Part shown: positions 19,233 through 39,229 of the stretch, piece after piece
Layout of the letters: every line of letters starts with the position of its first letter
How positions within the stretch are numbered: position 1 is the stretch's first letter
NCBI GenBank assembly: GCA_963746075.1
Contig: CAVUZY010000007.1
Coordinates: forward strand, 50,451 to 114,450
Origin: an uncultured Chloroflexia bacterium
GTDB taxonomy: Bacteria > Chloroflexota > Limnocylindria > Limnocylindrales > CSP1-4
Direction: 5' to 3'
Length of the DNA: 64,000 nucleotides
Position numbers and translations under genes: made by a program
Notes under the pieces: generated by a model
Told to the model about the DNA's origin: nothing
Database searches by the model: none
Seen by the model: only the letters and a program-made list of their open reading frames with translations

Positions 19233-20273
19233 TCACGGCATCCACTTCTGCCACGTCGCCGCATTGGCGTCGATCCACTGCTTCGCCGCGTCGAGCTCCT
19301 TCATGCTCTTGTTCGTGATCGCGTCGGCGACCGAGTTCTGGTCGGCGTTCGACCACTGGAAGTTCTTGATGAACGTGGCGGCGTCGCCGGCGGTGTTCAT
19401 CCATTCGGTCCGGACGATCTTGTTCAGGGTGTAGGACGGGTAGTCGCAGGCGACCTTCTTCAGGTCGGCGTCGCAGCCCTCGGTCCAGGCCGGCAGCTTG
19501 ACCTGCACGAGCTCGATCTCGTTCAGCAGCCACTGCGGGTCGTAGAAGTAGCCGATGAGCGGCGTCTGGTTCTTGGTGGCCTCCTGGAAGGCCGTGATGG
19601 ACGCCGCCTCGCTGCCGGAGAACACGACCTTGAAGTTCAGCTTGAGGTTGGCGATCAGCGCCTCGTCGTACTGGACGAACGCCGGGCTGGCGCCGAGGAA
19701 CTGGCCCTTGTCGCCGGACTCGGAGGTCTTGAACAGGTCGGCGTACTTGTTCAGGTTGTTCCAGTCGGTGATGTCGGGGTACTTGTCGACCATCCACTTC
19801 GGGACGTACCAGCCGATGATCCCCTTGACGCCCATCGGACCGGCGTCGACCGCGAGCTTCTCGTCCTGGATGTACTTCTTCTCGAGCTCGGGATGGCCCC
19901 AGTTCTCGAGGATGACGTCGACTTCGCCGGTCTTGAAGCCGACCCACGCGACTTCCTCGGCGAGGGTGCTCGTCTCGACCTTGTAGCCCATCTGCTGGAG
20001 CAGGCACTGGGCGACCGCCACGTTGGCCGCGGCGCCGACCCACTCGTTGACCATCATCTTGACGGCGCCCTTGTCACCGGCACCCTCACACGTCGCGGCG
20101 GCGACGGCGCTCGGAGCGGCGGCGCTGGCGCCGGGCGCGACGCTGGCCGGTGCGCCGGCACTCGCGGCCTGCGTCGGCGCGGTGGTCGCACCCGACGACC
20201 TCGCGCAGCCGGCCAGGACCAGGCTGACCACGGCCACGGCCGCGAACCAGCGTCCCCATCGATTCCGTTGCAT
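19233..20273 (-). CDS. proX: Glycine betaine/choline/proline-betaine ABC transporter substrate-binding lipoprotein
   Basis: Lipobox VLAGC; GEVDVILENW, IGWYVP, GYFYDPQW (OpuAC family). Confidence 0.85.
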   Translation of the reverse strand: MQRNRWGRWFAAVAVVSLVLAGCARSSGATTAPTQAASAGAPASVAPGASAAAPSAVAAATCEGAGDKGAVKMMVNEWVGAAANVAVAQCLLQQMGYKVETSTLAEEVAWVGFKTGEVDVILENWGHPELEKKYIQDEKLAVDAGPMGVKGIIGWYVPKWMVDKYPDITDWNNLNKYADLFKTSESGDKGQFLGASPAFVQYDEALIANLKLNFKVVFSGSEAASITAFQEATKNQTPLIGYFYDPQWLLNEIELVQVKLPAWTEGCDADLKKVACDYPSYTLNKIVRTEWMNTAGDAATFIKNFQWSNADQNSVADAITNKSMKELDAAKQWIDANAATWQKWMP

Positions 20274-20298
20274 GTCTGGCGCTCCTCCTCTTGCCGGC

Positions 20299-22227
20299 TC
20301 AGCCGGCCTTTGCGACGGTGGTCCGGCGACGGGTTCCCGCGCCCTGGGTGATTCGATCCAGCATGATCCCGAGCAGGACGATCGCGACGCCGGCGGCCAG
20401 GCCCTTGCCGAAGTCCTTGCCCTGTGCCAGCCCGGTGATGACGTCGTAGCCTAGCGCGCCCGCGCCGACGAGGCCGCCGATCACGACCATGGCGAGGACG
20501 AGGACGATTCCCTGGTTGGCCGCCAGGAGCAGCGCTCGCATGGACAGCGGGAGGCGGACCTTCCAGAGGAGCTGTCGTTCGGTGGCGCCGGACATCGTGG
20601 CCGCCTCGACCACGGTCTCCGGCACGGATCGGATCCCGGCGTCGACCAGGCGGATGACCGGCGGGACCGCATAGATCACCGCGGCGACGATCGCGGTGAA
20701 CCGGGTCGGCTGGAACAGGGCCAGGGCCGGGATCAGGTACACGAAGGCCGGCAGCGTCTGGGCCGCGTCGAGGAGCGGTCGCAGGATGGCCCGGAGGCGG
20801 TCGCTCCGGGCGGTCAGGATCCCGATCGCGATCCCGATGATCAGCGTCAGCGCCGTCCCGACGAGGACGTTGGCGAGGGTCGCCATCGAGTGTCCCCAGA
20901 GCCCGACGAGGACGATGCCGATGAGGCAGATCCCCGCCGCGATCGAGGCCCGCCGGCCCGACAGGGACCAGGCGATCACCATGACGACGACGACCACGAG
21001 CCACCACGGCGATGACGTCAGGACGCCCTCGAGCGGGTTCAGGACGAGGTTCGTCGCCACGTTCTTGATGACGATCGTGATCCCCGAGAACGTGTCCGTG
21101 AACCAGTTGACCGACTCGTTGACGGCGCCCCGGAACGAGAACTGGATGTCGGTCGGGAAGCGCGTCGCGTCGACCGCGAACGGGGCGAGCAGGCCGCCAA
21201 GGGCGAGGCCGGCCGGACCGATCCAGCCGATCATCCGCTGCCGTCCCGCACGGCGCGTCCTGGTCCGGCCGCGCGGGTCCAGCCAGTCGCCGGCCGCATA
21301 CGTCACCCGATCGAGGATGATCGCCAGGATGACGATCGCGAGACCGGCGTCGAACGCGGCGCCGACGTCGACCTTCGAGACGGCGCTGAGGATCGTCCGG
21401 CCGAGGCCGGGCGCGCCGATGATCGCGGTGATCACGACCATCGAGAGGGCCATCATGATCGTCTGGTTGACGCCGAGGCCGATGGCCCGGCGAGCCAGGG
21501 GCAGCTGGACCTTGGCCAGGACCTGGCGGCTCGTCGAGCCCAGCGAGACCGCGGCCTCGACCGATCCGGGAGGCACGCCCCGGATGCCGAGCGCCGTGAT
21601 CCGGATCGCCGGCGGGATGGCGTAGATGAGGGTCGCGACCACCGAGGACGGCGCCCCGATGAAGAACAGCAGGACCATCGGCGTCAGATAGGCGAACGTC
21701 GGCAGGATCTGCATGACGTCGAGGATCGGGGCGAGGACGGCCGCGACGCGCTGGTTGCGGCCGGCCAGGATTCCGAGCGGGATCCCGATCGCGACGGCCA
21801 GGATCACCGCCGCCAGCATGAGCCCGAGGGTGGCCATGCTCTCGTCCCACAGGCCGAGCACGCCGAGCGACGCGAACCCGGCGATCGTCAGCACCGCCAG
21901 GCGCCAGCCGCCGAACACCAGGGCGAGAGCCGCACCGATCCCGATGATGCCCGGCCAGCCGAGCGACTCGATGGCCAGGTTGAACACGTCGACGAACGAC
22001 CCGATCGCCAGCCGGATCGGCTCGAGGACGGTGCGGTTCTCGTCGACGACGTCGCGGACCCCATTGAGCGTCCGGAACAGCGGCTCGTCGTCGTTGTGAG
22101 GCAGCGTCCACTGGTTCCGGAACAGGAGGTAGGCGAGGGCGGCCGCGCCGAGCAGGACGACCGCCAGCCCCCGTCGACCCGAGCGGGGGTCCCACCGGCT
22201 GCGGGCCGGCAGGCTGATCGCGGTCAC
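20299..22227 (-). CDS. proW: Glycine betaine ABC transporter permease with two fused ProW-type domains
   Basis: Two repeats: [13 protein letters not shown]...EAAVSLG and [13 protein letters not shown]...EAATMSG. Confidence 0.88.
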
Positions 22228-23471
22228 CGTTCGTCGGGTGGGTCGCGCCGTTCGGCCACGGCGTCGGCCAGGTACTGCGTCGTCGCTTCGGTCGGCTTGC
22301 GGATCGGCTCCACGCGCTCCCGCGGCGGCTGGAAGGGCGGGCCGCTCGGATCGGCTGCGGCGGCGGACGGTCCGACGGCCGGATCGGCGCCGCCGATGGC
22401 TTCGAGGATGTGGGCACGGTCGACCACGCCGACGAGCTGGCCGTCGTCGACGACCCGGATCGGCTTCTCGGAGGCTGCCGCGGCGTGGATCACGGTCCGG
22501 ATCACGGCGGTCGACGGGAAGACCGGGCCGTCAACCGGATCGTCGGGGGTCGCCGGGCGCATGACCCAGCGGAGGGTCAGGACGTGCGCCTTCGGGATGT
22601 CGCGGACGAAGTCCTCGACGTACGCGTCGGCCGGCCTGGCAACGAGCTCCTCCGGCCGCCCGATCTGGACCACCTTCCCGCCGCGCATGATCATCACGTG
22701 GTCGCCGAGCTTGAGCGCCTCGGCGAGGTCGTGGGTGATGAACACCATCGTCTTCTTCAGGTCGCGGTGGAGCCGGATCACCTCGCTCTGCATGTCGCGC
22801 CGGATCAGCGGGTCGAGGGCGCTGAACGGCTCGTCGAGGAGCATCACCTCGGGATCGCCGGCGAGGGCCCGGGCCAGGCCGACCCGCTGCTGCTGGCCGC
22901 CCGACAGCTGGTCGGGGTAGCGGTCGGCCATCCCGTCGAGGCCGACGAGGCCGAGCATCTCCTCCGCCCGGGCCAGGCGGGTCACCTTGGGCTCGCCGCG
23001 CAGCTCCAGCCCGAACGCGATGTTCTCGAGCACCCGCCGATGGGGGAGCAGCCCGAAGTTCTGGAAGACCATCGAGAACCGCCGCCGGCGGAGCTCCCGA
23101 AGTCGCTCCTGGCTGGCGTTCCGGATGTCCTCGCCGTCGAGGTCGATCGCCCCGAAGGTCGGCTCGATCAGGCGGGTCAGGCAGCGGACGAGGGTCGACT
23201 TGCCGGAGCCCGACAGGCCCATCACGACGAAGACCTCACCGGGCCGGACGTCGAACGAGACGTCGCCGACGGCCATCGTCCCGCCGTGCTTCTGGACGGC
23301 CGCCTCGATCGCGTCGGCGCCGGGGACCTCCTTCGAGCTGGCCGCGAGGCGGCTCTCCGCCGGGCCGAAGATTTTCCAGAGGTTGCGGACGGCGATCGTG
23401 GCGCGACCGCCCGGATCCGGGCTCCCGGGGTCGGTGACACGCGGGGTGACGGGCTCGGCAACGCTGGTCAC
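22224..23471 (-). CDS. proV: Glycine betaine ABC transporter ATP-binding protein
   Basis: [53 protein letters not shown]. Confidence 0.9.
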
Positions 23472-23674
23472 GCAGCCTCCTCAGATGCGGGACGACGACG
23501 GCGACGCGTGCGGGGACGGTACACCACGCGCGGGTCGGCGGAACAGCCCTCGCCCGCGCCCGACCGGGCGGTACCATGGGCGCCCCCGGGATCCCCAGCG
23601 GCGATGCCGTCGCTTCCGGCTCGGGCGTGAGGGTGCGACCGCGCGCGTGGCGCGCGCAGGGTGGAGAGGCGAGC

Positions 23675-26196
23675 ATGAGTTCGGTTCCGGCGCAGGCACG
23701 CGTCGTCATCATCGGCGCCGGCATCGTGGGCAACAGCATGGCCTTCCACCTCGCCGATCAGGGCTGGCGGGACATGGTGCTCATCGAGAAGGGCATGCTG
23801 CCGAACCCCGGCGGCTCGACCGGCCACGCCTCGAACTTCATCTTCCTCACCGACCACAGCAAGGAGATGACGGCCCTCACCGTCGAGAGCGCCCGGCAGT
23901 ACCGCGAGCTCGGCGTCTTCGACGAGACCGGTGGCATCGAGGTCGCCCGGACGCCGGAGCGGATGGAGGAGCTCAAGCGGCGGATGGCGTCGTCGACGTC
24001 GTGGGGCATCGAGGGGACCCGCCTGCTCACCCCGGCCGAGGTCAAGGCGATGGTCCCGTTCATCGACGAGACGGTCATCCTCGGCGGCTTCTACTCGCCG
24101 GGCGTCGGGATCGTCGACTCGCTCCAGGCCGGGACGCTGATGCGCCAGAAGGCCCAGGAGATGGGGGCGCTGACGGTCGCCGCGAGCGTCGAGGTCACGG
24201 GGATCGACGTCGAGGACGGTCGCGTCCGGCGCGTCCACACCGACGCCGGCTCGATCGAGGCGGAGGTCGTCGTCATCGCCTGCGGCGTGTGGAGCCCGCG
24301 GATCGCGCGGATGGCCGGGGCGTCGATCCCGCTGACCCCGGCGGTCCACCAGATGATCGACATCGGTCCGGTCCCGATGTTCCAGGACACGACCCGCGAG
24401 GTCGGCTATCCGATCGTCCGCGACATGGACACGAACATGTACGAGCGGCAGCACGGGACCGGCTTCGAGATCGGCTCGTACGCCCACCGCGCGATCCTCA
24501 TGGACGCCGACGACATCCCGTCGATCGCCGCGTCCGCGCTGTCGCCGACGATGCTGCCGTTCACCCAGGAGGACTTCGATCCGCAGCTCGAGGACTCGCT
24601 CGAGCTCTTCCCGGCGATCGTCGGCGACGAGTCGGTCGGGGTGAAGCTGGCGATCAACGGCCTCCTGTCGCTGACGCCCGACGGCAACCCGATCATCGGC
24701 GAGACGCCCGAGGTCAAGGGTCTGTGGTCGGTCGCCGCCGTCTGGATCAAGGAGGCGCCGGGGATCGCCAAGACCGTCGCCGAGTGGATGACGAACGGCG
24801 AGCCGGAGATCGATCCACACGGCTCGGACATCGCCCGCTTCTACGACCACCACAAGACGGCCCAGCACATCGCGGCGCGAACGACCGAGGGCTACAACAA
24901 GACGTACGGGATCGTCCACCCGATGGAGCAGTGGGCCTCCAACCGGCCGATCCGCGTCTCCCCGGCGTACGATCGCCAGGTCGCGCTCGGCGCGGTGTTC
25001 TTCGAGGCGGCGGGCTGGGAGCGCCCGTTCTGGTACGAGTCGAACAAGCCCCTGCTCGACGAGTACGGCGAGCGGGTCATGCCGCGCGCCGCCGAGTGGG
25101 AGTCGCGCTGGTGGTCGCCGATCATCAACGCCGAGCACCTCGCGATGCGCGACCGGGCCGGGATGGTCGACCTGTCGGCCTTCGTGATCTTCGACGTCAG
25201 CGGGCCCGGCGCGTGCGCTTACCTCGAGCGGCTGTCCGTCAACAAGGTCGACGTCGCGCCCGGGCGGACGGTCTATACGCCGCTTCTCAACGGGGCCGGC
25301 GGGATCCTGGCCGACCTCACGATCATGCGTCTCGCCCAGGACCGCTTCCGGGTCGTGACCGGCGGCGGGATGGGCATGCGCGACAAGAAGCTGTTCACCG
25401 ACCAGCTGCCCGGCGACGGGTCGGCCCAGCTCCACGACGCGACGAACCAGTGGACGACGATCGGGCTGTGGGGCCCGCGCGCCCGCGATGTCCTCGCGGC
25501 GGTGACCGAGGCCGACGTCAGCCACGCCGGTTTCCCGTTCCTGACGTCGCACGACGGTCGACATCGACGGCGTCCGGACGCTGGCGTCGCGGATCAGCTA
25601 CGTCGGCGAGCTCGGCTGGGAGATCTACGTCCCGATCGAGCAGGGCCGCCGGGTCTGGGACGCGCTCTGGGAGGCCGGCCGTCCGCACGGGATGGCGCCG
25701 GTCGGGATCGGGACGTACGCGGTGACGGCCCGCCTGGAGAAGGGCTACCGGGCCCACGGCGCCGAGCTCGAGCTCGACTTCGACCTGGTCGAGGCCGGCA
25801 TGGCCCGGCCGACCGTCAAGGACGCCGACTTCATCGGCAAGGCGGCCTACCTCCGGCAGCCGCGCGGAGTCACCGGCGGCGATCCTGTGCACGCTGACCG
25901 TGGACGACCCGACGTCCAAGTCGGGCGTCAAGCGCTACATGCTGGGCCGCGAGCCGATCCTGACCCGCGACGGCGGGCGGATCGTCGACGCCAAGGGCCG
26001 CGGCTCGTACGTGACGAGCGCCGGCTCCGGCCCGTCGGTCGGGAAGCACCTGCTGATGGCGTACCTGCCGCCGAGCGAGGCCGTCGAGGGCAATCAGCTG
26101 CTCGTCGAGTACTTCGGCGAGCGCTACCCGGTGACCGTCGCCGTGGCCGGCGCGACGCCGCTCTTCGATCCCGAGAACGCCCGGATCCGGTCCTGA
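23675..26196 (+). CDS. GcvT-family FAD-dependent oxidoreductase (dimethylglycine/sarcosine dehydrogenase-like), frameshifts near 25550 and 25860
   Basis: IIGAGIVG FAD motif, GGSTGHA, GWERPFW, folate-binding GCV_T region, RLEKGYR, and C-terminal GYVTSA-like and FDPENAR. Confidence 0.9.
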
Positions 26197-26203
26197 TCTC
26201 GGC

Positions 26204-26980
26204 GTGAACATCCTCGTCTGCGTCAAGCGCGTCCCGGCGACCGGCGGCCGGATCGTCCTGACCGCCGACGGGTCGGACATCGACGTCCGCTACCTCGGGT
26301 TCACCGTCAGCCCGCACGAGGAGTGCGCCGTCGAGGAGGCGGTCCGGATCGTCGAGGCGGGCGGCGGCTCGAGCGTCGTCCTGACGCTCGGCCCAGCGGC
26401 CGCGGAGGAGCAGCTCCGCGACGCGATGGCGATCGGGATCGACCGGGCGATCCTGCTCGAGACCGACGGCCGGCGACTGGGACCCCGTCGCGACCGCCGA
26501 CGCGATCGTCGAGGCGATCCGGGCGCAGGAGGCGGCCGGAACGCCCATTCGACCTGATCCTGTTCGGCAATGAATCCGCCGACAGCGGCGGGTTCCAGGT
26601 CGGCATCCGGGTCGCCGCGCTGCTCGACCGGCCGTGCGTGACGGGCATCAAGGCGATCCAGCCCGGCGACGGCCGGCTCGTCGCGCGGCGCGAGGCGCCG
26701 GCCGGCGGCTGGGAGACGTTCGAGCTCCCGCTGCCCGCGGTCGTCTCGGTCAAGGAGGGGATCAACCTGCCGCGCTACCCGTCGATCCCGGGTCGGCTGC
26801 GGGCGAAGAAGAAGGAGATCGACCGGTCGACGCCGGCGTGGCGCTCGGGCGGCCTCGGAGAAGATCGTCCTGCGCCTGCCGAAGGAGGAGATCACCGCCG
26901 CCGAGGTGATCGGTCGCGGCGCGGACGCGGCGCCGGCCGTCGTCGACCTGCTCGCCCGGATCGGCGTGCTGGACCGATGA
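26204..26980 (+). CDS. etfB: Electron transfer flavoprotein beta subunit (two frameshifts)
   Basis: MNILVCVKRVP, DLILFGNESADSGGFQVG, LPAVVSVKEGINLPRYPS. Confidence 0.88.
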
Positions 26981-27977
26981 GCGCGCCCGTCCTCGCCCTC
27001 GTGACGATCACGGCCGGCGTCCCCGAGCGGGCCTCGCTCGAGGCGCTCGGTCTCGCCCGCCGGCTGGCGCGCCGAGACCGGTGCGACGCTCGAGGCCGTC
27101 CTCGTGCCGGACGGGTCAGGCGTCGCGCCCGCGGCGGCCGGCCTCGCCGGGCTCGGGATCGCGACGGCGATCGTCGTCGAGCACGCGGTCCTGACGGCCG
27201 ACCATCCCGACGGCTGGGCGGCCGCGATCGCCCAGATCGTCGAGGCGCGCACGCCCGCGGCCGTCGTCGGCGCCGGGACGGAGCGCGGCAACGAGGTCCT
27301 CGCCCGCGTCGCCGCCCGGCTGGCCTGCCGCTGGCCGCCAACTGCGTCGTCGGTCGAACCGGGCGAGCCGGTACCGGATCACCCGCCAGCGCTGGGCCGG
27401 CAGCCTCCTCGAGGAATGCTGGCTCGACGCCCCGATCCGGCTGCTGACGGTCGCCCCGAACGCGGTCCCGGCCGGCGAGCCCGACGGCGGCCGCCGCGCC
27501 GGCCGTCGAGACCGTCGCGGTGACCCTGTCCGAGCGCGACCTCGGCCTGTCGCGTCACGAGCCGCGAAGCGTCCGAGAAGGGCGGGATCTCGCTCGCCGA
27601 CGCGAAGGTCGTCGTCGGCGGCGGGCGAGGCGTCGGCAGCACCGAAGGGTTCGGCGACCTCGAGGAGCTGGCCGGGCTGCTCGGCGGCGCGGTCGGCGGC
27701 TCGCGGGTCGTGACGAGCGCCGGCTGGCGGCCGCACGCCGACCAGATCGGCCAGACGGGCCTGCGGATCGCGCCCGACCTGTACATCGCGTGCGGCATCA
27801 GCGGCGCGATCCAGCACATCGTCGGCTGCAAGGCGGCGAAGCGTCATCCTCGCGATCAACACCGATCCGGACGCGCCGATCATGGCCGTCGCCGACTACG
27901 CGGTGATCGGCGACCTGCACACGGTCGTCCCGGCGATCTCGGCCGAGATCCGGCGGCGGCGCGAAGCCCGCGCCTGA
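26977..27977 (+). CDS. etfA: Electron transfer flavoprotein alpha subunit (several frameshifts)
   Basis: [58 protein letters not shown]. Confidence 0.85.
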
Positions 27978-28043
27978 ACCCGGCATGCGCTCCGTCCGCG
28001 ATCGGCCATCCGCCGCGCGTCCGCTCTGCCCGCGTCGACGGAC

Positions 28044-29736
28044 ATGACCGAGCGCGCCTGGGACTACGTGATCGTCGGCGGCGGAAGCGCGGGCAGCGCC
28101 CTGGCAAACCGCCTCAGTGCCGATCCCGCGTACCCGCGTCCTGGTCCTCGAGGCCGGCCGCCCGGACTGGCGGTTCGACGTCTTCATCCACATGCCGTCG
28201 GCGCTGAGCTTCCCGATCGGCAGCCGGTTCTACGACTGGAAGTACGAGACCGAGCCGGAGCCGTTCATGGACGGCCGCCGGGTCTACCACGCCCGGGGCA
28301 AGGTCCTCGGCGGCTCGTCGAGCATCAACGGGATGATCTTCCAGCGCGGCAACCCGCTGGATTACGAGCGCTGGGCGGCCGATCCCGGGATGGAGACGTG
28401 GGACTACGCCCACTGCCTGCCGTACTTCAAGCGGATGGAGGACTGCACCGCGGCCGCGGCCGACGATCCGTGGCGCGGTCATGGCGGCCCGCTCGGCCTC
28501 GAGCGCGGGCCGGCGACGAGCCCGCTCTTCCAGGCCTGGTTCGAGGCCGCCCAGCAGGCCGGCTACCCGCTGACGAGCGACGTCAACGGCTACCGCCAGG
28601 AAGGTGTCGCGGCCTTCGACCGGAACATCCGGCGCGGACGCCGGATGAGCGCCGCCCGGGCGTACCTGCCGCGACCGGTCCGGCGCCGGAAGAACCTGTC
28701 CGTCCGGACCTCGACGCTCGTGACGAAGATCCACTTCGAAGGCCGGCGGGCGGTCGGCGTGGAGATCGAGCGGCACGGGGGAGGGACGGAGACGATCCGG
28801 GCCGGCGAGATCATCCTGGCCGGCGGCGCCTTCAACACGCCCCAGCTCCTCCAGCTCAGCGGGGTCGGGGCGGCCGCGGACCTCGCCCCGCTCGGCATCC
28901 CGGTGGTCGCCGACCTGCCGGGCGTCGGCGAGCACCTCCAGGACCATCTCGAGGTCTACATCCAGTACGGCTCGAGCCAGCCCGTGTCGATGCAGCCGGC
29001 CGCGACGCAGCTCTGGCGCCGGCCGTTCATCGGCGCCCAGTGGCTCTTCCTCCGGACCGGTCCGGGGGCCACGAACCACTTCGAGGCCGGCGGCTTCGTC
29101 CGCTCGAACGACGACGTCGCCTACCCGAACCTGATGTTCCACTTCCTGCCGCTCGCGATCCGCTACGACGGCACGCCGCGCCCCGAGCGATCATGGCTAC
29201 CAGGTCCACGTCGGGCCGATGTACTCGGATGCGCGGGGTACGGTGAAGGTCACCTCGACCGATCCCCATGTCCATCCGGCGATCCGGTTCAACTACCTCT
29301 CGACCGCCCAGGACCGGCGGGAGTGGGTGGAGGCGGTCCGCACGGCGCGGCGGATCCTGACCCAGCCGGCGTTCGCGCCGTATTCGACCGGCGAGCTGTC
29401 ACCCGGGCGCGGGCGTCGAGACGGACGAGGAGATCCTCGGCTGGGTCGCGAAGGATTCCGAGACGGCGCTCCATCCGTCGTGCACGGCGCGGATGGGCGT
29501 CGATCGCCGCCTCGGTGGTCGACCCGCTGACGATGCAGGTCCACGGCGTCGAGGGCCTGCGAGCGGTCGACGCGAGCGTCATGCCCTACGTCACCAACGG
29601 CAACATCTACGCCCCGGTGATGATGCTGGCGGAGAAGGCGGCCGACCTGATCGCCGGCAACACGCCGCTGCCGCCGGAGCCGATCCCGTTCTATCGCCAC
29701 GGGAGCTCGCCGCTCGAGGATCCGTCGCGGGGCTGA
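28044..29736 (+). CDS. betA: Choline dehydrogenase (GMC oxidoreductase), about four frameshifts
   Basis: [73 protein letters not shown]. Confidence 0.85.
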
Positions 29737-29766
29737 CGCCGTTGGAGCCGGCGATCCGTGGTGAGG

Positions 29767-30519
29767 CTACGCCTCGGGCGACGCCGGCTTCGCCGCTGCG
29801 GGATCGCGCAGCCCGCGAAGCAGGATGCTCACGAGGTCCTCGGCGGCTTGCGCGTCGGGCGCGACGCCGGAGGTCAGGAGCCGCATCAGCATCGTGCCCT
29901 GGACGATGTCCGACACGAGGCCCGGGTCGATGTCGGTCCGCAGGCCGGCGGCCGCCGCGCGCTCGGCGTACTCGCGGGCGATGTTGCCGTGGTTCGGGGT
30001 CACTCGCTCAACGAGGGTGCGGGCGGCAGCCGGGCCGCGGAGCGCTTCGCTCACGAACAGCGGCAGGAACCGCTGGAACGCCGGCTCGCTGAGGACGGCC
30101 GCGGCCCACGCGGCGCCGGTCGCGATGTCGCGCACGATGTCGCCGGACAGGGGGAACGGCTCGCGGCCCTTGACCTGGGCGAGGGCGGCCGCGATCAGGG
30201 CCTCGCGCGTCGGGTAGCGGCGGTACACGGTCGCGCGAGCCACGCGTGAGCGAGACACGACCGCGCTCATCGTCAGGCCGGCGAGCCCGACCTCGGACAG
30301 GAGCGCCATGGCTGCGTCGAGAATGGCCCGATCGGCGGTGCCACTGCGCGGCCGGCCGATCCGGCGCGGGACCACCGGGACGGGAACGACGTGCGGACGG
30401 TGGGCCGTCGCCTCGCCCTGGCCGTTCGTCCCGCCGCGCGGGCTGCCGCCCGCTGGACGGGACTTCCGGGCGGTCGTGGTGCTCGCGGTTGACGTGCGGA
30501 CGGTTTGCGGTGTCGACAC
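29767..30519 (-). CDS. TetR/AcrR family transcriptional regulator
   Basis: [20 protein letters not shown]...[14 protein letters not shown]. Confidence 0.9.
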
Positions 30520-30538
30520 CCGACGACCATACCATCCA

Positions 30539-30564
30539 TTTGATACTAGACAGGGTGTATCAAA
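30539..30564. promoter_or_regulatory. Putative TetR operator (inverted repeat)
   Basis: TTTGATAC-N10-GTATCAAA perfect 8-bp arms 20 nt upstream of the tetR start. Confidence 0.7.
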
Positions 30565-30668
30565 ACGTACCGGTGCGGGCACGCCGGACCTTCGTCAGTC
30601 GGCCCCGCCCCGGGCACGATCCGGCTGCCGCGGGCGACGAGCCGCGAACGGACGAGCCAGGCGGTTCA

Positions 30669-31422
30669 TCAGCCGGCCTGACGGAGGCGGCGCGACAGTC
30701 GGGCCGCGGATTCCACGAGCAGCTCGGCGATCCGCGTCTCGCTGCCCGGGCTGGGGAAGCGGTAGGCGGGTCCGTGGACGTGGATCGCAGCGACGATTTC
30801 GCCGCTCGAGTCGGCGATCGCCGGCCGCGACCGACGCGATCCCGTCCGCGTACTCGCCGTTCGTCCAGGCATGCCCGTCGAGCTGGATCCGCTGGAGGCG
30901 TGCCCGGAGCTCGTCCGCGTCGGTCATCGTGCGGGCCGTGAACCGCTCGAGCGGCCGGCCCAGGTACGCCTCGATCCGGTCGCGCGGCCGGAGGGCGAGG
31001 ACCGCCAGGCCGGACGACACCGCGTGGAGCGGAATCCGCGATCCGGTCCAGTCGCGAACCCCGACCGGCTGGTCGCTGTCGACCTGCTCGACGTAGTGGA
31101 TAGCGTCGCCTTCCGGGATCGACAGGCCGGCCGCCTCGCCGATCGCCGCCGCGAGCTCGGCCAGCTGCGGCCGGGCAATGGCGACGAGGCCGCGGGCCGC
31201 GGCGAGGCCGGTGGCGAGGCTCTCGATCCGCGGCCCGAGCCGGTAGCGCGTCTCGCCGGGCAGCTGCTCGACGGCGCCTTCGCGGGCGAGCGACGCGAGC
31301 ATCCGGGCGGCGGTCGACTTGGGCAGGTCGACCCGATCGGCGACCTCGGTGACCCCGATGGGGCCGTCGGTCAACGCTCCGAGCACCGCGAACGCTCGCT
31401 CGATCGACTGGACTCTGGACAC
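30669..31422 (-). CDS. IclR family transcriptional regulator, frameshift near 30830
   Basis: VQSIERAFAVL...LPKSTAARMLASL...YRLG, LHAVSSG, GIASVAA. Confidence 0.9.
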
Positions 31423-31454
31423 GCGACTCCCCGTGGACTAGATTCGGCTCCTGC

Positions 31455-31489
31455 GTTCCATCATACGGCACCGTTCCACGATGTGGAAC
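31455..31489. promoter_or_regulatory. Putative IclR operator pair in the divergent iclR/corrinoid-operon promoter
   Basis: Perfect palindrome GTTCCAC-GAT-GTGGAAC at 31473-31489 and a degenerate copy GTTCCATCATACGGCAC at 31455-31471. Confidence 0.7.
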
Positions 31490-31560
31490 CCCCGACGTGA
31501 GATGATGGCGGTCCTCGGTCGGCGGGCGGAGCGCGAGCCGACGGTCAGGGAGCATCACGC

Positions 31561-32254
31561 GTGGCCGACTACGAAGAGATCGACCTTTCGGCGCTGAGCG
31601 ACGACGAGCTCGTCGAGCAGATGCACAACGACCTGTACGACGGCATGCGCGACGAGATCGTCGAGGGCACGAATCATCCTGCTCGGACGCGGCTTCAGCG
31701 CGACGAAGGTGCTGGACGACGCGCTGGTCGCGGGCATGAAGATCGTCGGCATCGACTTCCGCGACGGGATCCTGTTCGTCCCCGAGGTCCTCCTCGCCGC
31801 CAACGCGATGAAGGCCGGGATGGAGATCCTGCGGCCGCTCCTCGCCGAGACCGGCGCCGAGCCGGTCGGCAAGGTCGTCATCGGGACCGTCAAGGGCGAC
31901 ATCCACGACATCGGCAAGAACCTGGTCGGGATGATGCTCGAGGGGGCCGGCTTCGAGGTCGTCGACCTCGGGATCAACACCGACGCCGAGAAGTTCATCG
32001 CCGCGCTCGAGCTCCACAAGCCCGACATCCTCGGGATGAGCGCCCTCCTCACGACGACGATGCCGTACATGAAGGTCGTCATCCAGACCCTCAAGGACCG
32101 CGGGATGCGCGATGACTACATCGTCCTCGTCGGCGGCGCGCCGCTCAACGAGGAGTTCGGGCTGGCCGTCGGCGCCGACGCCTACTGCCGCGATGCCGGC
32201 GTCGCCGCCGAGACGGCCCGTCGCCTGATCGACGAGCGCCGTGCCGCCGCCTAA
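31561..32254 (+). CDS. Methyltransferase cognate corrinoid protein (MttC/MtgC-like), frameshift near 31680
   Basis: FVPEVLLAANAMKAG cap domain; GTVKGDIHDIGKNLV (DxHxxG), SALLTTT, VGGAP. Confidence 0.92.
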
Positions 32255-32374
32255 GCCGTCGCCCGGTCGAAGCGCCCGTGGTCCCAGCCGTGGACCAAGC
32301 GACGTCCGAGGCGGGGCGACACCGATCCCGGGGCGGCCGCCGCCGGTCGCGACGCGTCCGGCGGCCGGACGCAC

Positions 32375-33106
32375 GTGACGTCCGATCCAGCGATCCGAGT
32401 CAGCCGGTGCCGGCTCCGATCGTCGCCTGGTCCGTCGGGCGCGACCGCGATCGAGCCGGCGAACGCCGCCCGCGCCCTCGTGATCGGCTGCGGCGCGCTC
32501 GCCCGCGAGCTCCTCGAGGTGACCGACCCAGGTGCCGGGCCTCGACGTCGCCTGCCTGTCGCCCGACCTCCACAACCGCCCCGACGGGATCCCCGGCGCG
32601 GTCCGCGACCGGATCGCGACGGCCCGCCGCGACGGCTACGAGCAGATCTTCATCGCCTACGCCGACTGCGGGACGGGCGGCCTGCTCGAGCCGGTGCTGG
32701 CCGAGGCCGGCGTCGAGCGCCTGCCGGGCGCCCACTGCTACGAGGTCTTCGCCGGGTCGGCCGAGTTCGCCGCGCTGGCCGACGCCGAGCCGGGCACGTT
32801 CTGGCTGACCGACTTCCTCGCCCGCAACTTCGAGCGGCTCGTCATCCGCGGGCTCGGGATCGATCGTCATCCGGAGCTCCAGGCGACGTACTTCGCCCAC
32901 TACACCCGGGTCGTGTTCCTGTCCCAGACCGAGGACCCGGACCTGCTCGTGCTGGCCGCGCCGGGCCGCCGAGCGGCTCGGGCCTCGCGTTCGAGCATCG
33001 CCCGACGACCGTCGCCAACCTGGCCGCCCCGATCCTTGCCTTCGCCGCGCGCGCCGGCGCCACGATCGCGCCGAACCGACGGTCCGCGCCGCGTGGGGCC
33101 CACTGA
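32375..33106 (+). CDS. DUF1638 domain protein (two frameshifts)
   Basis: IGCGALARE, LHNRPD, YADCGTGG, GAHCYE, TFWLTDFLARNFE. Confidence 0.85.
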   Translation: MTSDPAIRVSRCRLRSSPGPSGATAIEPANAARALVIGCGALARELLEVTDPGAGPRRRLPVARPPQPPRRDPRRGPRPDRDGPPRRLRADLHRLRRLRDGRPARAGAGRGRRRAPAGRPLLRGLRRVGRVRRAGRRRAGHVLADRLPRPQLRAARHPRARDRSSSGAPGDVLRPLHPGRVPVPDRGPGPARAGRAGPPSGSGLAFEHRPTTVANLAAPILAFAARAGATIAPNRRSAPRGAH

Positions 33107-33558
33107 TGGCGTCCCTGACCGTCATCTGGTGGCGCGACATCCCGGCCCAGGTCCTCGCCCGCGAGGGGCGTCGGGCGAGCAAGGTCCAGCTCCATCCGCG
33201 CTTCCAGGTCGCGATCGACAAGGCCGCCAGCCGGGCCGGCAAGCGCACCTACAACGAGTACATCGAGGAGTGGCGCAAGGTCGCCCGCGCCTGCGGCGAC
33301 GACCTCGAGTCGGAGGTCAACGCCGAGGTCGAGCGGCTCGAGACGGAGTACGACAAGCACCGCCTCGCCGAGCTGATCCAGACCGGCGGCGTCGCCGGCG
33401 GCCCGATCTTCGCGCCGGCCCAGGACGAGACCCAGCGCGGCCCGCGCGAGGCCAACGCGGCCCATCCCGCGTCGGCGCCGGTCGATGGCGCCGCCTCGGC
33501 CCCGGTCGATGGCGCCGCCGAGCCCGCCGCCGCCCCCGCCGAGAGAGATCCTGCGTGA
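33106..33558 (+). CDS. 'Virulence factor' domain protein (PF13769-like), methyltransferase-cluster accessory
   Basis: VIWWRDIPAQV...LHPRFQVAIDKAA...YIEEWRK; low-complexity tail. Confidence 0.75.
   Translation: MASLTVIWWRDIPAQVLAREGRRASKVQLHPRFQVAIDKAASRAGKRTYNEYIEEWRKVARACGDDLESEVNAEVERLETEYDKHRLAELIQTGGVAGGPIFAPAQDETQRGPREANAAHPASAPVDGAASAPVDGAAEPAAAPAERDPA
33469..33516 (+). repeat. In-frame 24-bp tandem repeat encoding ASAPVDGA x2
   Basis: gcgtcggcgccggtcgatggcgcc followed by gcctcggccccggtcgatggcgcc. Confidence 0.8.
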
Positions 33559-34506
33559 CCTGGACCGTCGTCGGATCCGCCACCCGGGAGGTCGTCATCG
33601 GCGACGACCGGCCGTTCGTCGTCATCGGCGAGCGGATCAACCCGACCGGCCGGAAGCTCCTCGCCGAGGAGATGAAGAACGGCGACTTCAGCCGGGTCGA
33701 GCGCGACGTCATCGCCCAGGTCGAGGCCGGCGCCCACATGCTCGACGTCAACGCCGGGATCCCGCTCGCCGACGAGCCGGCGATCCTGGCGAAGACGATC
33801 CAGCTCGTCCAGTCGCTGACGGACCTGCCGCTGTCGATCGACTCATCGATCGTCGAGGCGCTCGAGGCCGGCCTCGCCGTCTACCAGGGCAAGGCCCTCG
33901 TCAACAGCGTCACCGGCGAGGACGAGCGGCTCGAGCGGGTCCTGCCGCTGGTGAAGAAGTACGGCGCGGCCGTCGTCGCGATCAGCAACGACGAGACCGG
34001 CATCAGCGAGGACCCGGACGTCCGGTTCGCGGTCGCGAAGCTGATCGTCGAGCGGGCGCTGCGACCACGGCATCCCGCGCGAGGACGTCATCGTCGACCC
34101 GCTGCTGATGCCGATCGGGGCGATGCCGACGGCCGGCCGCCAGGTGTTCCGGATCCTCGGCCGGCTGCGCGACGAGCTCCAGGTCAACTCGACGTGCGGC
34201 GCGAGCAACGTCAGCTTCGGCCTGCCGAACCGCGAGGGGATCAACGGCGCGTTCCTGGCGATGGCGATCGCGTCGGGCCTGACGTCGGCGATCACGAACC
34301 CGATCGCGGAGGGGGTCCGCAACGCGGTCATGGCCGCCGACGTGCTCCAGGGCAACGACCAGGACGCTGCCCGCTGGATCCGGACGCATCGGGTCGGTCC
34401 GGCCGACGGCGACGTCGGCGGGCGCCGGATCAACCGGCGCCGATCCGGCGGCGAGCCGCCGCAGCGGATCGCCGGAACCGAGGCCGCCGCCACGGCCGGC
34501 GGCTGA
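33555..34506 (+). CDS. Pterin-binding methyltetrahydrofolate:corrinoid methyltransferase (MtqA/AcsE-like), frameshift near 34060
   Basis: VIGERINPTGRK, LDVNAG, LSIDSS, ALVNSVTGE, VIVDPL, CGASNVSFGLPNR. Confidence 0.9.
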
Positions 34507-34524
34507 CCTCGCGAAGGCGCCGCG

Positions 34525-36573
34525 ATGGCCGTCGAGCCGCTCGTCATCTTCACGCCGTCCGGCCGGCGCGGCCGGTTCGAGACGGGGACGACCGTCCTCG
34601 ACGCCGCCCGCCGGCTCGGCGTCGACATCGACTCGGTCTGCGGCGGCCGCGGGATCTGCGGCCGCTGCCAGGTCGAGCAGAGCGTCGGCGAGTTCGCCAA
34701 GCACGGGATCACGTCGCGCGCCGGACCACCTCACCCCGTTCGGCCCGGTCGAGGTCGAGTATCGCGAGCGCAAGGGCCTCGCCCAGGAGCGGCGGCTCGG
34801 CTGCGTCGCCCACGTCCAGGGCGACGTCGTCATCGACGTCCCGCCGGAGAGCCAGGTCTACCGCCAGGTCGTCCGCAAGGGCCTCGACGTCCGCGACTTC
34901 CACCTCGATCCCGTCGTCCGGCTCCACTACGTCGAGGTCGAGCCGCCCGAGCTGGCCTCGCCGTCGGGCGACCTCCATCCGCCTGCTGGAGTCGCTGGCC
35001 CGCGAGTGGGATCTCCACGACCTCGAGGCCGACCTCCACGTCATCCGGGCGCTCCAGCCGGCGCTCGAGGCGGGCAAGTACGGCGTGACCGTCGCGGTCC
35101 ACGGCCGGCAAGACGATCACCGCCGTCTGGCCCGGGCTCCACGACCAGGTCTACGGCGTCGCGATCGACATCGGCTCGACGACGATCGCCGGCCACCTCG
35201 CGAACCTCGCCGACGGGGCGGTGCTCGCCAGCGCCGGCGTGATGAACCCGCAGATCCGGTTCGGCGAGGACCTGATGAGCCGGGTCAGGTACGCGATGAT
35301 GAACGACGCCGGGGCGGGCGAGATGACCGCGGCCGTGCGCCAGGCGCTCAACGGCCTCCTCGCCCAGCTCGCGAACCGCGGCGGGATCAAGCGCGACGCG
35401 ATCCTCGAGCTGGCGATGGTCGGCAACCCGATCATGCACCACCTCCTGCTCGGCATCGACCCGATCCCGCTCGGGTCGGCGCCGTTCGCGCTGGCCACGG
35501 ACCGGGCGCTCACGATCCGGGCCGACGAGCTGGACCTGCTCACCCATCCCGGCGCCCGGGTCTACGTCCTGCCGTGCATCGCGGGTCACGTCGGCGCCGA
35601 CACGGCCGGCGTGATCCTGGCCGAGGCGCCTCACGAGTCCGAGGTCGTCGAGCTCGTCGTCGACGTCGGCACGAACGCCGAGATCGTGCTCGGCAACAAG
35701 CACTACCTGCTCGCCGCCTCGTCGCCGACCGGGCCGGCCTTCGAGGGCGCCCAGATCTCGTGCGGCCAGCGCGCCGCGCCCGGCGCGATCGAGCGCGTCC
35801 GGATCGACCGGGCGACGCTGGAGCCGCGCTTCCGGGTGATCGGCTCCGAGCTCTGGTCGGACGATCCGGGCTTCGCCGCGGCGACCGCCGAGACCGGCAT
35901 CACCGGCATCTGCGGCTCCGGGATCGTCGAGGTCATCGCCGAGCTGTTCCTGGCCGGCGTGATCACCCCCGACGGGATCGTCGACGGCGCGCTCGCCGCC
36001 CGGACGCCGCGGATCGTCCCGGAGGGGCGGACGTTCAGCTACGTCGTCCACGACGGCGGCGACGGGCGCCTCCGGATCACCGTCACCCAGAACGACGTCC
36101 GGGCGATCCAGCTCGCAAAGGCCGCCCTGTACGCGGGCGTGCGGCTGCTGATGGATCACGCCGGGATCGACGCCGTCGACGAGGTCCGGCTCGCCGGCGC
36201 GTTCGGCAGCCAGATCGACCCGTTCCACGCGATGGTCCTCGGGCTCATCCCGGACGCGCCGCTCGACCACGTCAAGGGCGCGGGCAACGCCGCCGGCACG
36301 GGCGCCCTGATCGCCCTGCTGAGCGCGGCCGCCCGGACCGAGATCGAGGGCGTCGTGCGGCGGGTCGAGAAGATCGAGACCGCGGTCGAGCCGCGCTTCC
36401 AGGAGCATTTCGTCGAGGCGATGGCCTTCCCCCACCGGACGGCGCCGTCGACCCACCTGTCGCAGGTCACGGAGCTGCCGCAGCGCGGCGCCGGGCCGGC
36501 GGGTGGGGCACGGCCCGACGGCGGCGGACGGCGACGACGGGTGGTGGCATCCGCCGCGAAGGAGGACCGATGA
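34525..36573 (+). CDS. ASKHA/DUF4445 ATP-dependent corrinoid reductive activator (RACE/RamA-like) with N-terminal 2Fe-2S domain; about three frameshifts
   Basis: CGGRGICGRC, IDIGSTT, NPQIRFGEDLMSR, VDVGTNAE, SPTGPAFEG, GICGSG, QLAKAA, LAGAFG, GNAAGTGA. Confidence 0.9.
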
Positions 36574-38118
36574 CCGTCGATGAGTCCCCCGCCAGCGGAC
36601 CGGCGGTCGCGCCGGCCGGCAGGCCGCCCGCGCCCGGACCCACATCGCCCGCGAGCCGTTCCTGACCCGCGCTCTCGAGCCGTTCGAGGTCCTCAACGAG
36701 GAGGGCCTGTCGCTCATCGAGCAGAACGCCGACACGATCCTCGAGGAGGTCGGGCTCGAGTTCCGCGGCGACGCGGACGCCCTCCGCCTGTTCCGCGACG
36801 CCGGCGCGGACGTCCAGGGCGAGCGCGTCCGCTTCCCGCGCGGGATGGCCCGCCAGATCGTCCAGGCGACCGCCCCGCGCCAGTTCACCCAGGTCGCCCG
36901 CAACCCCGACAACAACGTCGAGATCGGCGGCCGCCACACGGTCCTCGCCCCGAACTACGGCTCGCCGTTCGTCCGCGACCTCGACAACGGCCGGCGCTAC
37001 GGCACGATCGAGGACTTCCGCAACTTCGTGAAGCTGGCCTACCTCAGCCCGCACCTCCACCACAGCGGCGGGACCGTCTGCGAGCCGGTCGACGTGCCGG
37101 TCAACAAGCGCCACCTCGACATGGTCTATTCGCACATCCGCTACAGCGACAAGCCGTTCATGGGCTCGGTCACCGCTCCGGAGCGGGCGCGCGACACGGT
37201 CGAGATGGCCCGGATCCTGTTCGGCGCCGAGTTCCTCGAGACGAACATCGCGGTCGCTCTCGCTGATCAACGCGAACTCGCCCGCTCGTGTGGGACGCGA
37301 CGATGCTCGGCGCCGCGCGGGCCTACGCCGAGGCCAACCAGGCAACGCTGCTCACGCCGTTCATCCTGGCCGGCGCGATGTCGCCGGTCACCGTCGCCGG
37401 CGACCGCGGCCCAGACGCTGGCCGAGGCGCTCGGCGGGATGGCGTTCGTCCAGCTGATCCGGCCGGGCGCGCCGGTCGTGCTCGGGAGCTTCGCGTCGTC
37501 GATGTCGATGCAGTCGGGCGCGCCGACGTTCGGGACGCCCGAGCCGGCGCTCGTCCTGTACGTCATGGCGTCGCTGGCCCGCCGGCTCGGCGTCCCGTTC
37601 CGCTCCGGCGGCAACCTCTGCGCCTCGAAGATCGCCGACGCGCAGGCCGCCTACGAGTCGGCCGCGACGCTTCGGCCCGACGATCCTCGGCGGCGTCAAC
37701 TTCGTCCTCCACGCCGCGGGCTGGCTGGAAGGCGGCCTCGCGGTCGGCTACGAGAAGTTCATCCTCGACGCCGACCAGTGCGGCATGGCCGCGGTCTTCG
37801 TCAAGGGCGTCGACCTGTCCGAGAACGGCCAGGCGCTCGACGCGATCGTGTCGAACACGCCCGGCCAGCACTACCTCGGCACCGCCCACACGCTGGCCAA
37901 CTTCGAGAACGCGTTCTACCGCTCCGAGATGGCCGACAACAACAGCTTCGAGCAGTGGCAGGAGGACGGCTCGCTCGACGCCGCCCAGCGGGCCAACGGG
38001 ATCTGGAAGCGGATGCTCCGCGAGTACGAGGCGCCGCCGCTCGACGAAGGGATCGACGAGGCGCTCAACGAGTTCATCGACGAAGCGCAAGGCGTCGATG
38101 CCGGACTCCGAGGTCTAG
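36570..38118 (+). CDS. mttB: Trimethylamine methyltransferase (MttB) superfamily, non-pyrrolysine; probable glycine betaine:corrinoid methyltransferase (MtgB-like); about four frameshifts
   Basis: FTQVARNP, VCEPVDVP, TPFILAGAMSPVT, GAPTFGTPE, PFRSGGNLCASKIADAQAAYES, LHAAGWLEGGL, YEKFILD. Confidence 0.9.
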
Positions 38119-38128
38119 GCCGGCGGTC

Positions 38129-39008
38129 ATGCTGTTCCGTCGTCGCTCGTCTCTGGCACCGCCCGCGCGGGACGCGCTGGCGCACGTCCTCCGGTCTCCG
38201 ACCTTCGAGCTCGTGCCGCTGAAGAACGCCCTGGACCAGGCGGCGTTCCTGCCGGCGGGAGCCACGGTCTCGGTCACGGCCTCGCCGGCCAAGGGGATCG
38301 AGGCGACGATCGCCCTGTGCGAGCAGCTCCAGGGCCGTGGGTTCCGGGCGGTGCCCCACCTCTCGGCCCGGATGGTCCGCGACCGCGCACCACCTGGCCG
38401 ATCTCATCGCGTGGCTCGAGGGCGCCGGCGTCGACCGGGCGTTCGTCGTCGGCGGCGACGCCAAGGAGCCCGGCGACTACCCGGACGGCCTGTCGCTGCT
38501 CCGCGACATGGCCGAGATCGGGCATCCGCTGTCCGAGATCGGAATCCCGTGCTATCCGCAGGGCCATGCGTTCATCGCCGACGGGCCGCTGCTCGAGGCG
38601 CTCAACGCGAAGGCGGCGTTCGCGAGCTACATGACGACCCAGCTTTGCTTCGACCCGGGGGCGATCGCGACGTGGATCGCGGCGCGCCGAGCCGAGGGGC
38701 TGGAGCTGCCGATCCACGTCGGCGTGCCCGGCGTCGCCGAGCCGCACAAGCTCCTGGCGATCAGCGCCCGGATCGGCGTCGCCGACACGCACCGGTTCCT
38801 GACGAAGAACCTGCGGTTCGTCGCGCGGCTCGTCCGCTCCGGCGGCTTCTACCGGCCCGATGCGCTGCTGGAAGGGCTCGCCCCGCACCTCACCGATCCG
38901 ACGGCCGGCATCGTCGACCTCCACATGTACACGTTCAACGCGGTCGACACGTTCGAGGCCTGGCGGCGGTCCTACCTCGCGAACCTGCTGCGGGCCGTCC
39001 CCGCCTGA
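38129..39008 (+). CDS. Methylenetetrahydrofolate reductase (short MetF-like), frameshift near 38385
   Basis: VSVTASPAKG, VPHLSARMV, FVVGGD, CYPQGH, TQLCFD, GLHMYTFN-like HMYTFN. Confidence 0.85.
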
Positions 39009-39082
39009 GACCTGCTCGTCCGCCGCCCCGCGCTTGCTCATTCGGGCTCGCTCGGGCACGATGCGCGGACAACTGAAGACGA

Positions 39083-39185: not shown

Positions 39186-39198
39186 GGACCGCTCCTCG

Positions 39199-39229
39199 GA
39201 CCCTTCCGGCAGGAAGGGTCTTCTCGTTT
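39199..39229 (+). terminator. Riboswitch expression-platform terminator
   Basis: gacccttcc-ggca-ggaagggtc stem followed by ttctcgttt. Confidence 0.8.

Follow-up and report, generated by a model that had tools for sequence, protein, structure and literature searches.

A probable aerobic cobalamin-dependent glycine betaine demethylase locus in Candidatus Limnocylindrales (Chloroflexota)

Closest described systems and gene content of the locus

Aerobic, cobalamin-dependent demethylation of glycine betaine by an MtgB/MtgC/MtgD system, together with a RamA-like activator, a DUF1638 protein, and MetF2, has been described in Ruegeria, Phaeobacter, and Sinorhizobium (Mausz et al., PNAS 2025, PMC12478193). 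In R. pomeroyi, MtgC and MtgD are needed for growth on betaine, which is abolished in mtgC and mtgD knockouts, and the PF06253 proteins (MtgB), the RamA-like activator, the DUF1638 protein, and the MetF paralog MetF2 are induced (PMC12478193). The same study reported that MtgC and MtgD, with the homocysteine module MtgE, form a split methionine synthase, and that genes for reactivation, one-carbon (C1) oxidation, and later demethylation steps are co-located in many genomes, with all parts clustered in S. meliloti. Furthermore, deletion of mtgB1 in P. inhibens reportedly causes a betaine phenotype (preprint, bioRxiv 10.64898/2025.12.19.695462). Here, we report on a locus at positions 19233 to 39008 of a 64,000-nt stretch of contig CAVUZY010000007.1 from an uncultured Chloroflexota bacterium (the window; coordinates are window positions unless a contig is named). 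This locus probably represents the Limnocylindrales version of the aerobic MtgBCD demethylase, with feeder and follow-up enzymes, regulators, and frame breaks that are almost certainly assembly errors.

The genome carrying the window (G000; 3.55 Mb in 7 contigs, completeness estimate of 76%) belongs to Candidatus Limnocylindrales, judging by the names of close homologs ("Candidatus Limnocylindrales bacterium," "Chloroflexi bacterium," "uncultured Chloroflexia"), and the first-pass annotation, made from the sequence alone, had rightly guessed Chloroflexota. As the G+C content of the window is 71%, spurious frames dominate raw open reading frame (ORF) lists; Pfam family searches were made on stop-free frame pieces. 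The locus encodes an importer, BetA, a dimethylglycine dehydrogenase (DMGDH) homolog, EtfBA, TetR and IclR regulators, a corrinoid protein, DUF1638 and PF13769 proteins, a pterin methyltransferase, the activator RACo, an MttB homolog, and a protein resembling methylenetetrahydrofolate reductase (MTHFR). Every component named in the first-pass annotation was recovered by family searches and tblastn; its inventory was correct for the genes listed but lacked the DUF1638 and PF13769 proteins and did not flag the frame breaks. Its description of the system as undescribed does not hold, since PMC12478193 describes MtgBCD, and mttB/mtgB genes in Limnocylindria metagenome-assembled genomes (MAGs) had already been catalogued, under anaerobic methylotrophy (PMC11264602).

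The same locus is present in the same-genus genome G015 with clean genes and 4-base ATGA overlaps. Gene order is kept in G015, in a second same-genus genome (G017), and in dozens of loci of other lineages; the co-location of these genes is not due to chance. The annotated loci of S. meliloti and Paracoccus methylovorus contain an ASKHA protein, a methyl-tetrahydrofolate (methyl-THF):cobalamin methyltransferase, an MTHFR, a DUF1638 protein, a cobalamin-binding protein, and an MttB-family protein, and a PF13769 "virulence factor" protein is also encoded in the S. meliloti locus. Parts shared with the aerobic MtgBCD(E) system are the PF06253 MtgB, MtgC, MtgD, the RamA-like ASKHA activator, DUF1638, and a putative MetF2 paralog. 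Both systems likewise have several MttB paralogs per genome on one core, with later demethylation genes nearby. In contrast to the described system of marine Proteobacteria, the window derives from Chloroflexota of soil or freshwater. Its parts form one tight operon joined to DMGDH-EtfBA-BetA and the OpuAC importer, a full metH and yitJ adjoin behind a SAM riboswitch, and cobQ was not found in the genus (see below). Novel elements are the lineage; a compact supra-operon that includes the importer, BetA, and DMGDH-Etf and adjoins riboswitch-yitJ-metH; the one-hub, four-paralog arrangement in a genus in which cobQ was not found; and the reading of the frame breaks as artifacts.

Within the corrinoid core, the MtgC-type protein carries a DIHDIG motif, corresponding to the expected DxHxxG, and is 97% identical to its G015 counterpart; its best NCBIfam matches are MtgC models, below the cutoff (206 versus 370 bits). 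The G015 MtgD ortholog passes PRK07535 (351.6 bits versus a cutoff of 259 bits). Invariant residues of the DUF1638 protein among 43 homologs include C9, H36, D67-C68, and H90-C91. An AlphaFold model from these homologs reached a pLDDT of 96.4; Foldseek comparison of the model with the PDB returned no match with an E value of <0.001 or a TM score of >0.4, and a sequence search of the PDB returned no match. In Chloroflexota, Actinomycetota, and Proteobacteria alike, the operon retains DUF1638 and PF13769, and the clean intact orthologs could be used for probing the roles of both proteins.

Relationships of the MttB homolog and the predicted route

The window MttB shares 64.6% identity with the product of the S. 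meliloti cluster gene and 67.4% with that of Paracoccus, compared with 42.5% with the characterized MtgB of Desulfitobacterium hafniense (DSY3156) and 26 to 43% with its own paralogs. Its best solved relative is 4YYC (E = 1e-211). In a maximum-likelihood (ML) tree, MttB and the S. meliloti and Paracoccus cluster genes fall in one clade, apart from DSY3156. NCBIfam holds no MtgB-specific model, and only the model of the pyrrolysine (Pyl)-type MttB, TIGR02369, was matched, below its cutoff (235.9 versus 525 bits). The Pyl-containing MttB of Methanosarcina barkeri (7XCL) belongs to the same superfamily, PF06253, but matches with an E value of only 4e-26, and the window gene has no in-frame UAG. 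With the D. hafniense MtgB/MtgC/MtgA system (DSY3156; PDB 2QNE, 9YCE), the locus shares the three-component logic of methyl transfer from betaine via a corrinoid to THF and the MttB-superfamily TIM barrel. Unlike that system, the window belongs to an aerobic host and encodes DUF1638 and PF13769 in addition, and its MttB differs at F356 and in overall sequence.

The MttB gene start overlaps the RACo stop codon (ATGA). Its frame pieces are free of internal stop codons, and the ortholog is a continuous protein of 513 aa. The intact 450-aa ORF at 35221 to 36573 is not MttB but the activator; MttB lies at 36570 to 38118. In G017 (contig C7, locus L023/L024; 21668 to 25252 of the reverse-complemented join), RACo and MttB occupy one open frame of 1,194 aa, which is either a real fusion or the result of a stop codon lost by assembly error.

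D. hafniense MtgB binds betaine through cation-pi contacts of Y97 and F356, and R312 and H348 hold the carboxylate; enzymes acting on other betaines retain R312 and, to a lesser extent, H348, only MtgB has the aromatic pair, and an F356L exchange raises the Km ~800-fold (PMC13080624). The window MttB keeps three of these four residues, the Tyr (NYGSPF), Arg (PFRSGG), and His (LHAAGW) equivalents of Y97, R312, and H348. The predicted carboxylate clamp points to a betaine-type substrate rather than choline. Gene context favors glycine betaine, as the neighbors are an OpuAC importer, BetA, and a DMGDH/oxidase homolog encoded with EtfBA.

Among the oxidative enzymes, the DMGDH homolog has the architecture of, and full-length likeness to, characterized dimethylglycine dehydrogenases/oxidases (domain search, paralog comparison, and PDB comparison). 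Its frame pieces are 84 to 88% identical to the 874-aa G015 ortholog, whose best solved relative is the Arthrobacter globiformis dimethylglycine oxidase 1PJ5 (E = 6e-164). The mitochondrial DMGDH (5L46/4PAB) matches at ~1e-92, and the likeness to both spans the full length and the same four domains, including the THF-dependent GCV_T. The window enzyme is closer in sequence to the bacterial oxidase, yet it is encoded with EtfB and EtfA, suggesting a dehydrogenase linked to electron transfer flavoprotein (ETF) like the mitochondrial enzyme, with dimethylglycine as the substrate predicted by homology. The G015 BetA ortholog scores above the TIGR01810 equivalog cutoff (804.7 versus 732.1 bits), and the window BetA pieces are 76 to 85% identical to it. 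The OpuAC binding protein matches a choline ABC binding-protein model weakly.

These genes suggest a route from choline to sarcosine. The ProVWX-type importer, by its family, would take up betaine and/or choline, and BetA, whose family membership is established on the ortholog, would oxidize choline toward betaine. The MtgB-type MttB would then move one N-methyl group of betaine to the Co(I) of MtgC, freeing dimethylglycine, a step predicted from orthology to the Sinorhizobium/Paracoccus cluster gene, the three retained betaine-binding residues, and context. MtgD, again with its family established, would hand the methyl group to THF, and the MetF2-like protein may oxidize methyl-THF to methylene-THF. 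Judging by the published genetics, Co(II) formed by oxidation would be re-reduced by the RamA-like RACo and DUF1638, perhaps with PF13769. The DMGDH homolog would take the next methyl group as methylene-THF and pass electrons to EtfBA, as its family and adjacency suggest, and IclR, here probably with TetR, would regulate the gene set. The first-pass annotation had proposed the same order of choline, betaine, dimethylglycine, and sarcosine, with a corrinoid step before a flavin/ETF step; homology, context, and the published genetics of the homologous system speak for it. Its remark that neither BHMT nor the betaine monooxygenase GbcAB is encoded in the window was borne out, with no Rieske domain found there. 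Elsewhere in the genome, a Rieske oxygenase scored 215.9 bits, far under the GbcA cutoff of 670.

Several observations weigh against this route. At the position corresponding to F356, the window, G015, and 4YYC all have Gly, preceded by a Trp four residues earlier, and the window MttB does not have the strict MtgB tetrad Y97/R312/H348/F356. No betaine aldehyde dehydrogenase is encoded in the operon. The MetF2-like protein resembles MTHFR weakly (36.7 bits for the G015 ortholog versus the TIGR00676 cutoff of 293.7 bits); the position of its gene mirrors that of metF2 in R. pomeroyi. No cobQ (cobyric acid synthase) scored above the cutoff in any of the 21 genomes of the genus searched, though MetH and the Mtg system are encoded. 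Among characterized methyltransferases of this family, the identity comparison and the tree cover D. hafniense MtgB (DSY3156).

The exchange at F356, together with the presence of four paralogs in the genome and the variable specificity of MttB-superfamily paralogs, could indicate that the same machinery acts on another substrate. MttB would then demethylate proline betaine, carnitine, gamma-butyrobetaine, or another carboxylate-bearing quaternary amine, and BetA and DMGDH would serve a parallel route. We consider this rather unlikely. The Y97, R312, and H348 equivalents are kept; the operon lies beside the importer, BetA, and the DMGDH homolog, a linkage that recurs across phyla; and the S. 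meliloti cluster ortholog of MttB is assigned to betaine by PMC12478193. Moreover, proline-betaine-type substrates are more plausibly assigned to a paralog at C7:250946-252449, encoded near an MR/MLE racemase and Sox-like genes.

Table 1. Features of the locus and its downstream flank, in window positions
Feature	Position	Strand	Details
ProX/OpuAC-type substrate-binding protein, betaine/choline ABC importer	19233-20273	-	Intact, 346 aa; Pfam OpuAC E = 2.5e-38
Fused double permease, ProW-type	20299-22227	-	Intact, 642 aa; BPD_transp_1 in two stretches; 56% identity to G015 ortholog, full length
ABC ATPase, ProV-type	22224-23471	-	Intact, 415 aa; ABC_tran E = 2.4e-35; 68% identity to G015 ortholog
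Dimethylglycine dehydrogenase/oxidase homolog (DAO-FAO_M-GCV_T-GCV_T_C)	23675-26196	+	Three frame pieces; insertions near 25550 and 25860; Pfam; GCV_T_C end in a different frame from the DAO-FAO_M-GCV_T part
EtfB, electron transfer flavoprotein beta	26204-26980	+	At least three frame pieces; Pfam ETF on separate frames; tblastn versus G015 EtfB
EtfA, electron transfer flavoprotein alpha	26977-27977	+	At least three frame pieces; ETF and ETF_alpha (E = 1.5e-31) on separate frames; tblastn
Choline dehydrogenase BetA (GMC oxidoreductase)	28026-29736	+	Five frame pieces; GMC_oxred_N and GMC_oxred_C; insertions near 28129, 29179, 29405, and 29504
TetR-family regulator	29767-30582	-	TetR_N and TetR_C_11; start uncertain
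IclR-family regulator, divergent from operon	30670-31422	-	HTH_IclR and IclR_C; one insertion near 30820
Tandem 18-nt repeat with palindrome GTTCCAC-N3-GTGGAAC	31454-31489	.	Repeat search
MtgC-type corrinoid protein (B12 cap and B12-binding domain)	31561-32254	+	B12-binding_2 and B12-binding; one insertion near 31674
DUF1638 protein	~32400-33109	+	PF07796 E = 7.9e-21; start approximate; several frame breaks
PF13769 "virulence factor" family small protein	33106-33558	+	Intact, 150 aa; Pfam E = 2e-19
MtgD-type methyl-THF:corrinoid methyltransferase	33555-34506	+	Pterin_bind on two frames; one insertion near 34061
RamA-like/RACo reductive activator (2Fe-2S ferredoxin N terminus, linker, middle, ASKHA)	34525-36573	+	RACo_linker, Raco_middle, RACo_C_ter E = 1.8e-87; ~3 frame breaks in N-terminal third; N-terminal 2Fe-2S motif CGGRGICGRC
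MtgB-type non-Pyl MttB-superfamily methyltransferase	36570-38118	+	At least four frame pieces; PF06253 on four pieces, profile positions 1-494
MetF2-like divergent MTHFR	38129-39008	+	288 aa in relatives; one insertion near 38390; Pfam E = 0.0016
SAM-I riboswitch heading yitJ-metH	39081-39187	+	Rfam RF00162, 68.2 bits versus gathering score of 44.4
yitJ-like bifunctional homocysteine methyltransferase/MTHFR	39329-41297	+	Frame break; G015 ortholog passes PRK08645, 647.5 bits versus cutoff of 453; tblastn
Full-length metH	41294-45131	+	Frame break; tblastn pieces

Frame breaks in the assembly

Most genes of the locus are not ORFs as assembled. At least 12 are interrupted, with MtgC, MtgD, RACo, MetF2, and IclR each in at least two frame pieces and the remaining counts given in Table 1. 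From ~23.6 to 42.6 kb, the plus-strand coding frame, followed by third-position G+C, switches every few hundred bases without stop codons. Alignment of the window with G015 revealed 35 one-base insertions in the window versus 7 one-base deletions, 4 of which are intergenic, and every one-base insertion coincides with a frame switch in tblastn. When the window was aligned with G015, G017, and the sister genome L033 (26429 to 38971), 25 one-base insertions and 1 deletion were found only in the window, compared with far fewer unique indels in each of the other three genomes.

These interruptions of at least 12 genes in the deposited sequence could be taken for real frameshifts in a decaying pseudogene cluster whose pathway has been lost from the organism. 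This is very unlikely, as nearly all breaks are one-base insertions, the tblastn alignments of the 16 genes compared contain a single stop codon, in EtfA, and no large deletions were seen. Identity to orthologs past the breaks remains 75 to 97% for most genes, the exceptions being EtfA (61%) and the IclR tail (53%), and the dN/dS values of the compared genes are 0.03 to 0.40. Furthermore, the related genomes have intact genes at the matching locus. Programmed frameshifting was also considered and rejected, as the ~35 sites have no common motif, are absent from relatives, and show the same bias as the rest of the genome.

The insertion bias indeed extends well beyond the locus. A frame-segmentation scan of the whole genome yielded 482 stop-free frame switches, 86% of the insertion type. 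Their distribution is patchy: none occur in a 57-kb ribosomal-protein/rpoBC region (C4:880000-937000), where rpoB is intact, and 11 occur in the next 19 kb (C4:937000-956000). Like metH and yitJ, the essential haem-copper oxidase subunit I gene cox1 is broken (G000 C7:400451-401796, minus strand), in three pieces produced by two one-base shifts. As nearly every break is a +1 insertion, and as the breaks do not occur in three related genomes, bring almost no nonsense codons, follow a patchy genome-wide bias, and also affect metH and cox1, they are almost certainly consensus errors, and the genes should be read as intact. With the breaks attributed to the assembly, the betaine system is itself most likely intact in the organism. 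The patchiness fits an unevenly polished long-read consensus, and the one-base insertions would account for the completeness of only 76% in an assembly of 7 contigs. Relatives named "MFD" are long-read soil MAGs assembled from nanopore data. For annotation, this is a warning that hundreds of one-base insertions can make a functional pathway resemble pseudogenes or escape gene callers.

Distribution, genome context, and neighboring genes

A survey of 301 sampled Chloroflexota genomes placed orthologs with ≥76% identity in only four genera, all of this family; other families have homologs at 40 to 51%. In a sister family of the same order, with genomes of 1.0 to 1.4 Mb, the operon genes were not found. 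Among GTDB species genomes, the nearest relatives outside the Limnocylindrales are Actinomycetota (Gaiellales and Acidimicrobiia; 68 to 76%), followed by Alpha-, Beta-, and Gammaproteobacteria and Acidobacteriota (66 to 73%). The operon IclR-MtgC-DUF1638-PF13769-MtgD-RACo-MttB-MetF2 is kept in ~50 loci, most of those compared, and many Actinomycetota and Limnocylindrales have DMGDH-EtfB-EtfA next to it, in some cases with BetA. The layout in which a corrinoid core is joined to oxidative enzymes is common, not unique to the window. In the ML tree, Chloroflexota and Actinomycetota form a clade (support of 100/100) nested among proteobacterial sequences. This pattern would fit inter-phylum transfer followed by vertical spread, with a tentative rooting (Proteobacteria basal), as the outgroups DSY3156 and one paralog are both long branches. 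Aerobic cobalamin-dependent betaine demethylation, recognized only in 2025, would extend beyond marine Proteobacteria to Chloroflexota and Actinomycetota that are abundant in soil, lineages that have the genes of the corrinoid core and those of the choline and dimethylglycine steps side by side.

Two loci from other labeled lineages, L032 (Verrucomicrobiia) and L045 (Sulfotelmatobacter), carry Limnocylindrales-type operon genes at 79 to 86% identity and branch inside the Limnocylindrales clade. They likely reflect binning errors in those MAGs rather than transfer.

MtgC, MtgD, RACo, DUF1638, and PF13769 are each encoded once in the genome, MetH domains aside (tblastn), compared with four MttB paralogs. 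The paralog at C7:250946-252449 has one frame break and lies in a region (G000 C7:248000-261000, locus L027) that also contains pieces of an MR/MLE racemase, an aldehyde dehydrogenase, an intact 841-aa DMGDH-like enzyme, SoxA- and SoxB-like genes, and an Fe-alcohol dehydrogenase. It has no corrinoid protein of its own, and the region suggests a candidate route of the proline-betaine or hydroxyproline-betaine type that borrows the corrinoid core of the window. A stand-alone homocysteine S-methyltransferase (G000 C4:849049-849882, minus strand; 325.7 bits versus a Bmt cutoff of 338) could act as the MtgE module of a split methionine synthase beside the full MetH. The three other MttB paralogs and this MtgE/Bmt-like module probably also draw on the MtgC/MtgD/RACo/DUF1638 set of the window.

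The MtgE/Bmt-like gene, and the fact that the operon abuts yitJ-metH, raise the question of whether the corrinoid core mainly runs in reverse as a split methionine synthase (MtgC, MtgD, and an MtgE-type module), with betaine demethylation as a secondary function. This appears improbable. A full-length metH is encoded next door, and a complete MetH would lessen the need for a reactivation role of the MtgC core. Furthermore, the MtgE candidate lies outside the operon, whereas MttB, MetF2, DMGDH, Etf, and BetA lie inside, and the operon of L033 occurs without the metH block. An alternative placement in anaerobic methylotrophy, with methyl groups feeding anaerobic C1 or acetogenic metabolism, would follow the cataloguing of Limnocylindria mttB/mtgB in PMC11264602 and the classical origin of corrinoid methyltransferases in anaerobes. 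However, cox1, a gene of aerobic respiration, is present in the genome, the partners are ETF-linked flavin dehydrogenases and BetA, and the closest characterized system comes from aerobes, so that this alternative is scarcely credible.

For the aerobic demethylase, the absence of cobQ from all the genus genomes searched suggests that these organisms cannot synthesize cobalamin; the genus probably relies on an external supply, and the pathway on imported corrinoid. Osmolyte turnover in soil would then be tied to the vitamin B12 supply of the community. More tentatively, a single oxygen-tolerant corrinoid hub (MtgC, MtgD, RACo, DUF1638, and PF13769), acquired from Proteobacteria, may serve several MttB paralogs with different quaternary-amine substrates, as well as a homocysteine module, in soil Limnocylindrales and Actinomycetota; we regard this broader scheme as possible but doubtful. 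If it holds, Chloroflexota that are abundant in soil would play a major part in the B12-dependent consumption of betaine, choline, and related osmolytes, and DUF1638 and PF13769 would be a new component needed for Co(I) chemistry in air.

The SAM-I riboswitch marks the end of the catabolic operon. The riboswitch-yitJ-metH block (39081 to 45131) follows the operon in G000, G015, G017, L034, and L075; in L033, which does not have this block there, an M20 peptidase gene comes directly after MetF2. The IclR gene adjoins the operon in most related loci, and the tandem repeat upstream of MtgC is a candidate IclR operator. The TetR gene has no counterpart at the matching place in G015 by synteny comparison. 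Directly upstream of ProXWV, a second ABC importer (two SBP_bac_6 binding proteins, a fused permease, and a TOBE_2 ATPase) is encoded with a HAD hydrolase (12750 to 18873, minus strand). The HAD gene and one binding-protein gene are likewise present there in G015, with a sequence match for the binding protein only (51% identity). This second importer could supply a phosphorylated or conjugated choline precursor.

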